From positions 3,268,876 to 3,332,875 of the forward strand of contig CBDEGZ010000003.1 of assembly GCA_965238175.1 (NCBI GenBank): a stretch of 64,000 nt of DNA, read 5' to 3'. Source of the DNA: Gammaproteobacteria bacterium (lineage in GTDB: Bacteria; Pseudomonadota; Gammaproteobacteria; CAJXQU01). The notes beneath the pieces are model-generated. The model was not told the DNA's origin, made no database searches, and saw only the letters and a list, made by a program, of their open reading frames with translations. Shown here piece by piece: positions 28,787 through 64,000 of the stretch (its first letter is position 1; each line of letters starts with the position of its first letter). The position numbers and the translations under genes were made by a program.

Positions 28787-30012
28787 TGTAGAAGTTTAGA
28801 CCCAATCTGACACATCACTAAATCAAGCGGAGCGTAGCGACGCTTGATTTAGTGAGAGTTACCCGCTTTGATGTAACTGCAACGTAAACATCAAAACACA
28901 AAGAGGTAACTCTCATGATTCATACTAATGACAAAGTTATAAAACATAAAGTTGGTCTACTCAATCTCGCTGAAGAACTCGGCAATGTCTCAAAAGCCTG
29001 CAAGATGATGGGTTTGTCCAGAGATACATTTTATCGCTACAAAGAAGCGGCTGATGAAGGCGGTGTAGAAGCCTTGTTTGATCGTAATCGGCGTACCCCA
29101 AATCTTAAAAACAGAATCGACCCGGCTATTGAAACCGTTGTGCTCGAGTATGCACTGGAAGAGCCCGCACATGGTCAAACGCGCACCAGTAACGAGCTGC
29201 GCAAACGGGGAACATTTGTCTCACCCAGTGGCGTTCGTTGTATCTGGCTTCGTCATGGTCTTGCTTGCTTTAAAGATCGCCTGAAGGCATTGTCTGATAA
29301 GGTAGCTGGTGAAGGCTTGATCCTCACTGAGTCTCAAGTCGCGGCGATGGAACGCAAGAAAGACGACGATGAGGCTTGTGGCGAGATAGAGACGGCACAC
29401 CCTGGTTATCTTGGCTCGCAAGATACTTACTATGTCGGTACTTTCAAAGGCATTGGTCGGGTTTATCAACAAACGTTTGTTGATACTTACAGCAAGGTCG
29501 CTCACGCGAAACTGTACCCGACTAAAACACCGATTACGGCAGCTGACATGCTCAATGACCGCGTCCTCCCATTCTACGAAGAACAACGTTTGCCTATGTT
29601 GCGCATTTTGACAGATAGAGGGACGGAGTATTGTGGGCGAGCTGACCAGCATGATTATCAGCTTTATATGGCGTTGAACAATATCGAACACACCAAAACC
29701 AAGGTCAAATCACCTCAGACGAATGGTATTTGTGAGCGATTCCATAAGACGATCCTCAATGAGTTTTATCAAGTCGCTTTGCGTAAGAAAATTTACCAAT
29801 CGATTGATGAACTGCAACTCGACCTTGACGAATGGTTGCTCAAATACAATACTCAACGAACTCACCAAGGCAAAATGTGCTGCGGGAGGACGCCGATGGA
29901 AACACTCATCGACGGACAAGCTATCTGGAAGGAAAAGTTTGTGAATTAAACTTAACCTGACAGTCGGTTACTGATAATTGGGTAACTGTCAGATCAAATC
30001 TGAATTTCTACA
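28787..30012 (+). mobile_element. IS481-family element, copy 1 (1226 bp, 7-bp TSD GATTATC)
   Basis: Ends TGTAGAAGTTTAGA...TCTGAATTTCTACA; GATTATC at 28780-28786 and 30013-30019. Confidence 0.95.
28915..29949 (+). CDS. IS481-family transposase
   Basis: N-terminal HTH (GNVSKACKMMGLSRDTFYR); DDE core SQDT...LTDRGTEY...PQTNGICERFH. Confidence 0.95.
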   Translation: MIHTNDKVIKHKVGLLNLAEELGNVSKACKMMGLSRDTFYRYKEAADEGGVEALFDRNRRTPNLKNRIDPAIETVVLEYALEEPAHGQTRTSNELRKRGTFVSPSGVRCIWLRHGLACFKDRLKALSDKVAGEGLILTESQVAAMERKKDDDEACGEIETAHPGYLGSQDTYYVGTFKGIGRVYQQTFVDTYSKVAHAKLYPTKTPITAADMLNDRVLPFYEEQRLPMLRILTDRGTEYCGRADQHDYQLYMALNNIEHTKTKVKSPQTNGICERFHKTILNEFYQVALRKKIYQSIDELQLDLDEWLLKYNTQRTHQGKMCCGRTPMETLIDGQAIWKEKFVN

Positions 30013-30021
30013 GATTATCGA

Positions 30022-60056: not shown

Positions 60057-61666
60057 TAAGAATAGCTTTAGCGCAACTGAACCTCCATGTAGGAAACATT
60101 CCAGCAAATACAGACAAAATAATTTCCGCCGCGATCACGGCGCGTGACGAATTAAAAGCAGATGTGATTGTATATCCGGAACTCACGATCACCGGCTATC
60201 CGCCGGAAGATTTATTGTTACGACCACATCTTTATCAACTGATTGAAGAATCGCTGACAAGCATTGGTAAGAAAGTTAAAGATATCGATCTGATCCTCGG
60301 CTATCCCCGACAAGTAGATAAAAAATTATTCAATAGCTGCTCATTGATCCGCGATGGAAAAATCATCGCCACCTATGATAAACAGCATTTACCTAATTAT
60401 AGCGTCTTCGATGAAAAACGTTATTTTACACCCGGTAAAAAAGCCCTTGTCGCCGACATAAAAGGAATGCCTGTTGCCCTTAGCATTTGCGAAGACATTT
60501 GGACCAAAGGAACAGGTAAACAAGCGAGAGAAGCTGGTGCAAACTTGATCATCAACCTTAACGCATCACCTTACAATAAGGATAAGTTTGGCGAGCGTAT
60601 TGCTGCCCTAGAAGCAAATATTCTTGAAGGACAAGTACCTGTGATCTACGTTAATCTGGTCGGTGGACAAGATCAGCTCGTCTTTGATGGCGGCTCATTG
60701 GTTCTAAATAACAAAGCTGAACAGCGCTTCCGCGCTCCCAATTTTGAAGAAGATATTTATGTTGTTGAAGTTTCTGATAAAGGCAAAATTTCACACACTC
60801 ATCCGGGACCGGATGAAGTAGAAATCGAAGAAAGTATCTATCAAGCATTGGTTCTTGGCGTAAAAGACTATGTAACAAAAAATGGTTTCAAAGGTGCGGT
60901 GCTTGGACTTTCCGGTGGAATTGATTCTGCGCTAACTGCAGCAATCGCTGTTGATGCATTAGGCAAAGAAAATGTCGAAGGCGTTTTGATGCCCTCTCGC
61001 TACACATCTGATATGAGTAATGAAGATGCAGTCATAGAAGCGGAAGCTCTCGGTATCGAATATCACGTCATTCCGATAAAAAAAACATTTGATGCATTTA
61101 CTGAAAGCCTTGCAGACGTTTTTGCGGACACTGAGCCTGATACCACAGAAGAGAATATACAAGCACGCTGTCGTGGTGTTTTATTAATGGCGATTTCCAA
61201 TAAAACAGGAAAACTATTACTCACCACAGGTAATAAAAGTGAATTGGCCGTTGGTTATGCAACGCTTTATGGTGATATGAATGGAGGCTTTGCACCAATA
61301 AAAGATATCTCAAAACTACTCGTATATAAACTTTCCACATGGCGGAATACTATCTCTCAGGTTATTCCACAACGTGTCATTAGCCGACCACCCTCGGCAG
61401 AACTAGCACCTGATCAAAAAGATTCTGACAGTTTGCCGCCTTACGAAATTCTTGATCCAATTCTTGAAGCCTACATAGAGCATGATCAATCACCGGCAAA
61501 AATTATTGCGCAAGGTTTTGATCGTGCAATTGTTGAGAGAATCGTGACACTCGTCGATCGGAACGAATACAAACGCCGGCAAGCGGCGCCTGGTGTTCGG
61601 GTCACAAAACGAGCTTTTGGACGTGATAGACGCTATCCAATTACATCAGGTTATAAAGGGTTTTGA
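60053..61666 (+). CDS. nadE: Glutamine-dependent NAD+ synthetase
   Basis: Nitrilase domain ([26 protein letters not shown]) plus [33 protein letters not shown]. Confidence 0.97.
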
Positions 61667-61801
61667 TTTTAGAGAATTCTGAGCTAATTCGATCGATGCT
61701 CTAAAGGTAATTAACCTGATGTGATGGTCTCCTCCCCCTAACGGCATCTAGGTGCCATGATTGAACTGACATACACACAATCAAAAGAGGAGAAGACCAA
61801 A

Positions 61802-62815
61802 ATGAAGACTACAACAATCGGGTTAGACATAGCAAAAAACGTATTTCATGCTGTCTGCTGTAATCAACAAGGGCGTATAATCAAAAAGAAAATGTTAAAG
61901 CGAGCGCAGGTACTCTCCTTTTTTCAATCTCAACCTCCTTGTTTAGTCGCAATAGAATCTTGTGCAACGTCACAGTATTGGGCCCGAGCGATACAACAAC
62001 AGGGACATCAGGTGAAATTACTACCACCTCAGCATGTTAACGCATTTCTAATCGGCAATAAGAATGATTATAACGATGCCTTGGCCATCGCCGTTGCTGC
62101 GAAACAACCTCATTTAAAAAGTGTGGGCATTAAATCAGTTGAGCAACAAGACAACCAGGCACAACATAAAGCAAGAGACTTAGCGGTCAGACAAAGAACC
62201 GCATTATGTAACCAAATGAGAGCGCTTGTTGCAGAATATGGCATTAGCCTTCGTCCCGGCCTAAATACCCTACGTCAATCTATCCCGTTGCTATTAAGTG
62301 ATGAGAACGAACGGTTGTCCGTTACTTTCAAAAGGATACTGCGCCAGCTAAAGGAACAATGGCAATCACTTGATGCCTGTATTGCGACATTTGACCAATT
62401 GATCATTCAATCGGCAAAAAACAATGCGATTTGCCAACGCTTACAAACTATTCCAGGGTTTGGGCCGATGGTCTCGAGCGCGTATTTTAATGAAGTGGGA
62501 AACGGCGCTCATTATCACAAAGGGCGCGATGTGTCCGCCTCATTAGGACTTGTTCCACGACAGTACAGTAGTGGTGGTAAAGAGGTGCTACTGGGGATCA
62601 GTAAACGCGGCAATAAATACCTTCGTTGTTTGTTAATTCTAGGCGCGAAGGCCGTGGTATCAAGAGCCAAAACGAAAGGCGATAAACTGAGTCAATGGAT
62701 TAATCGTTTAGTTGAGACGCGGGGGCATAATCGAGCGTGTGTGGCGTATGCCAACAAAATGGCAAGAATGGCCTGGGCTATAACGGTTTCTGGTGATGAC
62801 TACTCACCGGCCTAA
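61802..62815 (+). CDS. IS110-family DEDD recombinase/transposase
   Basis: IGLDIAK, AIES, KNDYNDA (DEDD); C-terminal LGLVPRQYSSGGK, ISKRGNKYLR, ANKMAR; ATG at 61802 after GAGGAG. Confidence 0.95.
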   Translation: MKTTTIGLDIAKNVFHAVCCNQQGRIIKKKMLKRAQVLSFFQSQPPCLVAIESCATSQYWARAIQQQGHQVKLLPPQHVNAFLIGNKNDYNDALAIAVAAKQPHLKSVGIKSVEQQDNQAQHKARDLAVRQRTALCNQMRALVAEYGISLRPGLNTLRQSIPLLLSDENERLSVTFKRILRQLKEQWQSLDACIATFDQLIIQSAKNNAICQRLQTIPGFGPMVSSAYFNEVGNGAHYHKGRDVSASLGLVPRQYSSGGKEVLLGISKRGNKYLRCLLILGAKAVVSRAKTKGDKLSQWINRLVETRGHNRACVAYANKMARMAWAITVSGDDYSPA

Positions 62816-63045
62816 ATAGAGAGAACAAATCATTTCAACGAATTGCGAAGGTAAAACTAAAGATGGCATAACAGGTCAAACCAGCCTATTGAAAACCTGT
62901 CGAGCTCAGGGGTAACTAATACCGATAACCTGATAAGGAAAATAGGCGCGTAATACATCCAGGTCAGAAGTTGAAAACTTCATTGAAGGCCGTATATATG
63001 ACAGCAATCCTGTCCCTGTTATCTGAATGTTTTATCTTGCAATAC
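62816..63045 (+). ncRNA. Putative bridge RNA/seekRNA of the IS1111 element (boundaries approximate)
   Basis: Stem GCCTATT/AATAGGC encloses CGAGCTCAGG and TAACCTGA (match the target); ACATC and ATATATGA (match the element's own end junction) follow. Confidence 0.75.
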
Positions 63046-63061
63046 GGGAGGAGACCATATA

Positions 63062-63262
63062 TGAACTCGGGATAAGAATGGCCATAAAAACATTAAAAGA
63101 CAATGAGTTAGATGAAATCGCTGTGACTGTTTTGTCCAGTGGACTTCTTTTAGTGGCTATTAAGGCGGAGTTGCGTAGCAATAGCAGGCTATTGGAAACA
63201 ACTCCAACGCACAGAGGCGCTAAAAGAAGTCGGCTGGATGGATATTTCTTATCCCGAGTTCA
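63062..63262. mobile_element. ~200-bp MITE with terminal inverted repeats and long internal hairpin
   Basis: TGAACTCGGGATAAGAA...TTCTTATCCCGAGTTCA; nested stems GACTTCTTTTAG/CTAAAAGAAGTC, GGAGTTG/CAACTCC, CAATAGC/GCTATTG. Confidence 0.8.
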
Positions 63263-63264
63263 TA

Positions 63265-64000
63265 TGTAGAAATTCAGATTTGATCTGACAGTTACCCAAT
63301 TATCAGTAACCGACTGTCAGGTTAAGTTTAATTCACAAACTTTTCCTTCCAGATAGCTTGTCCGTCGATGAGTGTTTCCATCGGCGTCCTCCCGCAGCAC
63401 ATTTTGCCTTGGTGAGTTCGTTGAGTATTGTATTTGAGCAACCATTCGTCAAGGTCGAGTTGCAGTTCATCAATCGATTGGTAAATTTTCTTACGCAAAG
63501 CGACTTGATAAAACTCATTGAGGATCGTCTTATGGAATCGCTCACAAATACCATTCGTCTGAGGTGATTTGACCTTGGTTTTGGTGTGTTCGATATTGTT
63601 CAACGCCATATAAAGCTGATAATCATGCTGGTCAGCTCGCCCACAATACTCCGTCCCTCTATCTGTCAAAATGCGCAACATAGGCAAACGTTGTTGTTCG
63701 TAGAATGGGAGGACGCGGTCATTGAGCATGTCAGCTGCCGTAATCGGTGTTTTAGTCGGGTACAGTTTCGCGTGAGCGACCTTGCTGTAAGTATCAACAA
63801 ACGTTTGTTGATAAACCCGACCAATGCCTTTGAAAGTACCGACATAGTAAGTATCTTGCGAGCCAAGATAACCAGGGTGTGCCGTTTCTATCTCGCCACA
63901 AGCCTCATCGTCGTCTTTTTTGCGTTCCATCGCCGCGACTTGAGACTCAGTGAGGATCAAGCCTTCACCAGCTACCTTATCAGACAATGCCTTCAGGCGA
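63265..64000 (-). mobile_element. IS481-family element, copy 3 (truncated by window end)
   Basis: TGTAGAAATTCAGA end at 63265; sequence matches copy 2, including its SNP alleles; transposase 3' part 63328-64000. Confidence 0.93.

Follow-up and report, generated by a model that had tools for sequence, protein, structure and literature searches.

A stretch of 64,000 nucleotides of gammaproteobacterial DNA, called the window in the following, contains an insertion sequence (IS) of the IS1111 family whose recombinase is very probably guided by RNA to the tip of another mobile element, a miniature inverted-repeat transposable element (MITE). RNA guidance of this element is suggested by homology and by covariation: two short segments in the non-coding region downstream of the recombinase gene match the target, one on each strand, and among homologous elements both segments vary with the DNA that flanks the insertion. 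The IS is intact and has recently expanded. In the host genome, which consists of three contigs (3.35 Mb in total, main contig 40.4% G+C), it occurs in 25 copies, 22 of which are full-length and identical; two are 99.93% identical (one difference) and one is cut by the start of a contig. Coordinates are positions in the window, and other positions in the genome are given as contig:position (e.g., C3:589238).

Anatomy and family assignment

The limits of the IS were fixed by a site that exists in both an empty and a filled form and whose two forms differ by exactly the 1345-bp IS. The sequence TAACC-TGA-CAGTCGG occurs uninterrupted about 65 times within an abundant IS with an integrase core (one of these sites is at window positions 63310-63324, minus strand), and a single further one, at C3:589238, contains the IS. 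The empty site that the original prediction had reconstructed by removing the element from the letters is therefore real. According to the convention for the IS1111 family, extensions of 7 bp on the left and 3 bp on the right lie beyond the subterminal repeats (Siddiquee et al. 2024, PMC11187229), so that the left TGA is part of the IS, which extends from 61717 to 63061 and does not duplicate its target. The IS starts with TGA (61717-61719) followed by TGTGATGG. Its parts and its immediate surroundings are as follows.

61712-61716, plus strand: left target flank TAACC, which is also bases 1-5 of the MITE terminal repeat (24 of 25 copies)
61717-63061, plus strand: IS1111-family insertion sequence, 1345 bp, limits set by comparison with the empty site
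61717-61723, plus strand: left terminal extension TGATGTG, 7 bp, the first 3 bases equal to the 3 target bases 3' of the IS
61724-61736, plus strand: left subterminal inverted repeat ATGGTCTCCTCCC, 13 bp, from the sequence and homologous loci
61802-62815, plus strand: recombinase gene, 337 aa, ATG behind GAGGAG, from Pfam, NCBIfam and conserved residues
63046-63058, plus strand: right subterminal inverted repeat GGGAGGAGACCAT, 13 bp, from the sequence and homologous loci
63059-63061, plus strand: right terminal extension ATA, 3 bp, by the 3-bp convention of PMC11187229
63062-63262, no strand assigned: rest of the ~215-bp MITE, its left repeat continuing as TGAACTCGGGATAAG and its right repeat (63248-63262) lacking the last 5 bp

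The recombinase gene is the sole long open reading frame of the element (61757/61802-62815). It is preceded by 85 nt and followed by a non-coding stretch of 246 nt (62816-63061). The protein matches the Pfam families PF01548 (DEDD_Tnp_IS110, E = 3.6e-16) and PF02371 (Transposase_20, E = 6.4e-20) and the NCBIfam equivalog NF033542, "IS110 family RNA-guided transposase", with 302.9 bits at a cut-off of 140. In an alignment of 72 homologues, residues D9, E52, D89, D92 and G258 are conserved in at least 98% of the sequences. Residues 249-258, GLVPRQYSSG, correspond to the family motif GLxPxxxxSG, with G249, V251, P252 and G258 conserved; a C-terminal GL-P----S(t)G motif is a feature of the IS1111 family (PMC11187229). 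A phmmer search of the solved structures returned only IS621 and ISCro4, through the C-terminal domain alone and at E ~2e-4 (IS621, PDB 8wt6: E = 2e-4, C-terminal domain only). The subterminal repeat is the same in most homologous loci examined. All IS1111 features that can be read from a sequence are present (the domains, a protein of 330-350 aa, the motif, repeats of 11-13 bp, unequal extensions of 7 or 6 bp on the left and 3 bp on the right, and the downstream non-coding region), and the element has one target, one orientation and no target duplication. The assignment to the IS1111 family made in the original prediction is borne out by Pfam, NF033542, the motif, the repeats and the downstream region, and the motifs it had located are all exactly placed: TAACC at 61712-61716, TGA at 61717-61719, CATATA-TGA-ACTCG ending at 63069, the guide segments, ACATC at 62955-62959 and the stem that encloses the target guides. 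Among plasmid records, Megablast found no match to the element or to the integrase-core IS next to it.

The target

Without the IS, the sequence at this place would be TAACCTGAACTCGGGATAAG..., a repeat that recurs as its inverse complement at 63248-63262; uninterrupted ends of this repeat read TAACCTGAACTCGGG. The repeat is a MITE: it is small and non-coding, bears terminal inverted repeats of ~20 bp and is bordered by a 2-bp duplication. The genome contains about 10 copies; the length is constant at ~215 bp, and there is no long open reading frame. The ~205-bp unit has about nine full-length relatives at 83-100% identity, and repeat pairs 195-207 bp apart were found five times. After excision of the IS from the sequence, the 2-bp flanks match (CT, GT, TT, AC, TT) in five of the six copies in which both can be read, the sixth being ambiguous. 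An autonomous partner with the same ends was not identified in the genome.

The commonest target of the IS is formed by the outermost 13 bp of the MITE terminal repeat, which starts with the very bases that the IS requires. TAACC precedes 24 of the 25 copies and AAACC the remaining one; TAACC always lies to the left of the IS. TGA directly follows the right end in all 24 copies with a readable right flank, and the five bases beyond it in these 24 copies are distributed as listed here.

ACTCG: 8 copies
ATTCG: 3 copies
ACTGT: 3 copies
ACTCA: 2 copies
GATCG: 2 copies
ATTCT, ACTTG, ACCCA, CAGTC, TTTTC, GCTTT: 1 copy each

The expectation that all copies would be flanked by TAACC, TGA and ACTCG hence holds for the left half and TGA, and fails for ACTCG, which is present in just 8 of 24 copies. 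Sites of the form TAACC-TGA-ACTCG are occupied in 7 of 10 cases, the eighth ACTCG insertion having AAACC on its left, and only one of about 66 sites inside the integrase-core IS is occupied. A census of MITE-type ends, defined as ACTCGGGATAAG with up to 2 changes, revealed 14 ends occupied by the IS and 5 that are empty despite an exact TAACCTGA. Among about 13 ends that have TGA but a variant upstream 5-mer (TAATCTGA, GAACCTGA, CAACCTGA, TAAGCTGA, TAACTTGA and others) none is occupied, nor is any end of the TAACCTAA, TAACCCCA and TAACTCCA types. From the occupancy of these site types it follows that the left half and TGA are necessary and that the right half contributes.

The predicted RNA and its target guides

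Homologues were obtained by a scan of one genome per prokaryote species, which yielded 80 loci with relatives at 49-78% protein identity, many of them from marine gammaproteobacteria and Desulfuromonadales-type lineages. Seventeen loci were dropped for want of a readable repeat or flank or because N was present, leaving 62. A further 13 were removed: L072, L101 and L109, which had no recognisable donor segment, seven that were identical to retained rows, and L065, L083 and L086, whose extracted stretch was short (101-120 nt versus ~145). The non-coding stretches of the other 49 were aligned with that of the window to give 50 rows.

The segment 62816-63064 is predicted to fold with a z of -2.7 relative to shuffled sequences. 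RNAalifold placed 29 consensus pairs in 7 helices, with compensatory changes at 21 of the 29 among the 50 sequences. Paired cells amount to 97.6% versus 85.7% in column shuffles, and none of 500 shuffles reached any of five measures; since the rows are related, these shuffle counts are not probabilities. When the partners were slid by 1-3 columns, pairing fell to 31-42%. The predicted fold is convincing in view of this slide control and of the large number of pair types seen in each column. In the predicted architecture a short hairpin is followed by two domains built to the same plan, each with a basal stem, a 5' single strand, an apical hairpin and a 3' single strand.

62874-62882, plus strand: conserved small hairpin GGU-CAA-ACC 5' of the target loop (helix 1, 99.3% of cells paired)
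62884-62947, plus strand: predicted target-binding domain with basal stem 62884-62891/62940-62947, inner CCU/AGG pairs, two guides and an apical hairpin
62901-62910, plus strand: 5' target guide CGAGCUCAGG (DNA CGAGCTCAGG), complementary to the target top strand CC-TGA-(G)CTCG
62911-62923, plus strand: apical hairpin GGUA-acuaa-UACC between the target guides (4 of 4 pairs with compensatory changes)
62926-62934, plus strand: 3' target guide UAACCUGA(U) (DNA TAACCTGA at 62926-62933), same letters as the left flank and the first IS bases, hence complementary to the bottom strand
62948-63005, plus strand: predicted donor-binding domain with GC/GC closing pairs, stem 62962-62965/62988-62991 and hairpin 62967-62971/62977-62981
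63000-63014, plus strand: terminator-like hairpin GACAG-caauc-CUGUC followed by a U-rich run, conserved in close homologues

All 8 pairs of the basal stem of the target domain show compensatory changes among the 50 sequences. Its GCCUAUU (62884-62890) and AAUAGGC (62941-62947) enclose both target strings, one on each side of the small hairpin. The donor domain comprises helices 5-7, with compensatory changes in 5 of 5 pairs of the hairpin and 2 of 4 pairs of the stem. The terminator-like hairpin is a possible 3' end of the RNA, and a promoter scan found no consensus plus-strand promoter for the predicted transcript. The segment that matches the top strand lies 5' of the segment that matches the bottom strand, and the two overlap in the target, which is the order in IS1111-type seekRNAs (PMC11187229). 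The sequence-based checks proposed with the original prediction came out in its favour.

In 20000 mononucleotide shuffles of 62816-63045, TAACCTGA appeared in 0.5%, a 10-mer complementary to CCTGAACTCG with one mismatch allowed appeared in 0.3%, and both together never appeared.

Covariation of guides and flanks

Guides and flanks were compared by alignment columns and a sliding best match, applied in the same way to own and to cross pairings, of which there were about 2400. Among the 50 rows there are 46 distinct targets. The 5' guide matches the reverse complement of its own right flank as a perfect 7-mer in 25 of 50 rows and with at least 6 of 7 bases in 42 of 50; in cross pairings the respective values are 0.41% and 3.1%. 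The 3' guide matches its own left flank plus the target dinucleotide as a perfect 7-mer in 30 of 50 rows and with at least 6 of 7 bases in 41 of 50, versus 0.25% and 3.5%. Both guides reach at least 6 of 7 in 34 of the 50 rows. The signal is carried by the 45 rows that lack the TAACC of the window, which account for 24 (5' guide) and 25 (3' guide) of the perfect matches.

Individual loci illustrate the relationship. A Halioglobus-type locus, whose recombinase is 77% identical to that of the window, is inserted in AGATC/TGAGGTTA, and both of its guides have changed to match, to UAACCUCAG and GAUCUGA. A Colwellia-type locus in TAACC/TGAGATCG has the guides CGAUCUCAG and UAACCUGA, and two loci with TGGGTATA as the right flank carry UAUACCCAUC. 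The proposal that the segments are guides had implied that they covary with their targets among homologues, and this is what was found.

Donor segments and the joined ends

The second domain contains two segments that match the ends of the IS, and a candidate promoter half lies further downstream.

62954-62960, plus strand: putative 5' donor guide UACAUCC, its ACAUC complementary to GA-TGT of the IS left end
62994-63001, plus strand: putative 3' donor guide AUAUAUGA (DNA ATATATGA), same sequence as the junction of the IS right end with the left end
63037-63042, plus strand: TTGCAA, the -35 half of a candidate junction promoter, conserved in close homologues

The 5' donor guide tracks the left-end variants ATGTA, ATGAG and ATGAA of the homologues, and a locus with the left end TGATGTAAT carries AUUACAUCA. 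In all 50 homologous rows at least 6 of 7 bases of the 3' donor guide match, and its TG/CG dinucleotide shifts with the element in most rows. As read from the sequence, joining of the IS ends would give TTGCAA-17 nt-TATGAT (TA + TGAT), a promoter complete only at the junction; junction promoters have been described for the IS1111 family (PMC11187229). In the integrated state, 63037-63064 reads TTGCAA-17 nt-TATGAA, a promoter-like site that faces outward and from which the MITE could be transcribed into.

Proposed mechanism and its alternatives

Anatomy, copy number, specificity for site and orientation, the covariation-supported fold and the covariation of guides and flanks in homologues have been shown and are consistent with the following mechanism. 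Most likely, the DEDD recombinase works together with an RNA whose template is the 246-nt region 3' of its gene. The 5' strand (62901-62910) would pair with the target's top strand across the crossover and the 3' strand (62926-62934) with the bottom strand of the left flank, and jointly they would specify TAACC/TGA(G/A)CTCG, i.e., the tip of the MITE. The IS accordingly lands 5 bp inside the MITE end and always in one orientation. The second domain would provide the equivalent two strands for the joined IS ends, CATATA-TGATGTG. We infer that the RNA is expressed and bound, that the IS passes through a circular intermediate and that pairing rather than protein contacts chooses the site.

Several observations weigh against an RNA-guided element of this kind. 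The sequence TAACCTGA occurs 244 times in the genome, 28 times before an IS left end (25 copies and 3 fragments), 25 times as the internal guide and 191 times at empty sites, so that these 8 bases alone are insufficient. Compared with the GCTCG predicted by the guide, the right flanks have at most one mismatch in 10 of 24 copies, two mismatches in 7 and three to five in another 7. The guide predicts G after TGA, a fixed C standing opposite the A of the commonest target, and A is found in 19 of 24 flanks; in a Shewanella relative the guide has U at this position, which would match A. The sole site in the genome that matches the guides perfectly, TAACCTGAGCTCG at C3:393936, is empty. Among the homologues, the dinucleotide at the left and right junctions differs in 17 of 50 rows and the third base in 36 of 50. 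A duplicated TGA core has to be given up on this account and because the left TGA is, by convention, bases 1-3 of the IS; to speak of a TGA core overstates the case, as across the group donor and target share just a part of these bases. The donor segments covary less clearly, with own versus cross means of 5.62 versus 5.01 (5') and 6.72 versus 6.13 (3') of 7 bases, which can be ascribed to the small variation of the IS ends, and the 5' donor guide pairs over just 5 contiguous bases. Finally, a scan of 61500-63500 with Rfam 15 at E up to 10 gave no match to a bridge or seekRNA family.

The near invariance of the left half and TGA, together with the frequent mismatches in the right half predicted by the RNA, would be expected if the protein alone read TAACCTGA and the matching strings in the non-coding region were coincidental or remnants of carried-in target DNA. 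Carried-in target would form one contiguous string of a single strand, whereas here one segment is complementary and the other identical to the target, with a covarying hairpin between them. Over the 46 distinct targets both segments vary along with the flanks while the protein stays 49-78% identical. This strand arrangement, the covariation and the absence of both strings together from all 20000 shuffles render recognition by the protein alone very unlikely, and it was rejected. A second alternative is a composite unit in which the IS and the ~200-bp repeat move together, so that their association would not reflect targeting. Six of the roughly nine full-length MITE copies do have the IS at the same end, but identical IS copies are attached to MITE copies that diverge by 1.5-17% from the one in the window. 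MITE copies and ends also occur uninterrupted and with 2-bp duplications of their own, and at least 5 of the 25 IS copies are at sites without a MITE-type repeat, one of which, in another IS, is uninterrupted about 65 times. Co-movement is exceedingly improbable in view of the MITE divergence, the free MITE copies and the non-MITE insertions, and it too was rejected.

A third alternative leaves RNA guidance untouched and concerns the target, which might be a structural repeat of the repetitive extragenic palindromic (REP) type rather than a mobile element. The number of copies is only about 10, an autonomous partner with the same ends did not come to light, and many homologues target REP-like GTAGG sequences. 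The terminal inverted repeats, the constant length without a long open reading frame and the matching 2-bp flanks argue for a MITE, and a REP-like nature of the repeat is improbable.

Within an RNA-guided mechanism, the flanks admit a further, tentative interpretation. Of the 25 insertions, 24 conform to the 3' guide (left flank plus TGA). The 5' guide has a fixed mismatch to its commonest target and tolerates up to five mismatches in five bases, and it is conceivable, though rather doubtful, that in the natural host the guide works mainly as a reader of half-sites. If so, the IS would have been able to move on from the MITE tip to similar ends in other MITEs and in the most abundant IS, and it would also have produced small palindromic derivatives with two left ends. 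The genome would then document, for bridge recombinases of the IS1111 type, the asymmetry of the guide strands and the rules of off-target insertion as they occur in nature.

Other repeats and derivatives

The IS with the integrase core (rve), ~1.2 kb in length, has 68 ends in the genome and is also present at window positions ~28800-30020. One copy adjoins the MITE of the window.

63265-64000, minus strand: end of the integrase-core IS (Pfam rve, rve_3) with the unoccupied TAACC-TGA-CAGTC site at 63310-63324

The TAACC-TGA-CAGTCGG sequence, which resembles the MITE tip, is located in the subterminal region of this IS. In three places the right end of the IS1111-type element is followed by TGAAC and then directly by the integrase-core IS. 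A sub-threshold, partial Rfam match to psRNA2 (63238-63297, minus strand, 30.3 bits with a gathering score of 65) covers both the right MITE tip and the hairpin at the end of the integrase-core IS, outside the IS1111 element; it suggests that part of the psRNA2 family may be derived from an IS end.

Two palindromic elements of ~66 and ~95 bp (C3:1393274-1393339 and C3:1154716-1154810) consist of an IS left end facing an inverted left end, with TAACC bordering each on one side and GGTTA on the opposite side. Such elements may be non-autonomous derivatives, or deletions may have left them behind where two insertions stood head to head. At C3:2357911-2358383 lies a second, degenerate relative of the IS, which is 79% identical over the first 390 bases, has a broken reading frame and shows the same TAACC-TGA left junction.

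A second repeat family starts with TAACC(T/C)CA-GATCGGTTTAAGCC and has the pattern TAACC...TCGG...TAAG in common with the MITE tip. Two of its copies that read TGA carry the IS (they form the right flanks at C3:116798-118145 and C3:1170729-1172076), and three relatives that read CCA or TCA are without it. Contig C1 (10967 bases) has 55.8% G+C versus 40.4% in the main contig and may be foreign DNA or contamination.

Significance

With its 25 copies, 22 of them identical, the IS is a clearly delimited and evidently active addition to the RNA-guided IS1111 recombinases, and the sequence directly reveals its guide, target and donor segments. The genome amounts to a natural specificity experiment in which occupied sites, empty perfect sites and empty sites with one mismatch belong to the same repeat family. 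The alignment of 50 sequences offers a covariation-supported scaffold for a subgroup that Rfam 15 does not recognise. The observation is real and well supported, and the evidence is unusually clean.

Comparison with known systems

Transposon ends are reportedly also the targets of IS4321 and IS5075, IS1111-family elements said to insert at a fixed position and in a fixed orientation inside the terminal repeat of another transposable element. Their target is said to be the 38-bp repeat of large resistance transposons; they share with the element described here the use of a transposon terminal repeat, which here belongs to a ~215-bp non-coding element.

The published systems are compared on the basis of excerpts of the respective papers. 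Among the publications on IS1111, MITEs and targets, judged mostly by the title and the start of the abstract, none appeared to describe the present element. The excerpts on ISEc11, ISPa11, ISKpn4 and ISPst6 report dependence on a seekRNA, natural re-targeting and reprogramming (Siddiquee et al. 2024, PMC11187229). These elements resemble the one in the window in the DEDD recombinase of ~340 aa, the subterminal repeats of 11-13 bp, the 7-bp and 3-bp extensions and the downstream non-coding region. They likewise have the top-strand match 5' of the bottom-strand match, with overlap in the target, and show natural re-targeting among relatives at ~70-80% protein identity (PMC11187229). The element of the window differs from them in its target sequence and in being known from its sequence alone. 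A bridge RNA was predicted in the right end of 93.0% of IS1111-group elements, according to the excerpted text of Durrant et al. (2024, PMC11208160). As in the bridge RNA of IS621 and the IS110 group, the RNA predicted here has a target loop and a donor loop, each reading both strands; unlike here, the left end encodes the IS621 RNA, and the subterminal repeats of IS621 have a length of 2-3 bp (PMC11208160).

A parallel for the target is the IS1111 of Coxiella burnetii, of which 20 of the 21 copies in strain RSA 493 are associated with QMITE2, as stated in the excerpts of Wachter et al. (2018, PMC5896051). In both cases an IS1111-family element prefers a site within a MITE. In C. burnetii the target is a GTAG REP inside QMITE2 whereas here it is the outermost bases of the MITE terminal repeat, and the host and the MITE family differ (PMC5896051). 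The original prediction of a hyperparasite that inserts into the end of a MITE therefore stands with regard to the target but not as a new idea, as targeting of MITEs by IS1111 and of transposon repeats is already in print. An RNA that carries guides to the tip of another mobile element is an arrangement already known for the IS1111 family, and it is within this understanding of the mechanism, which is left unchanged, that the element of the window finds its place.

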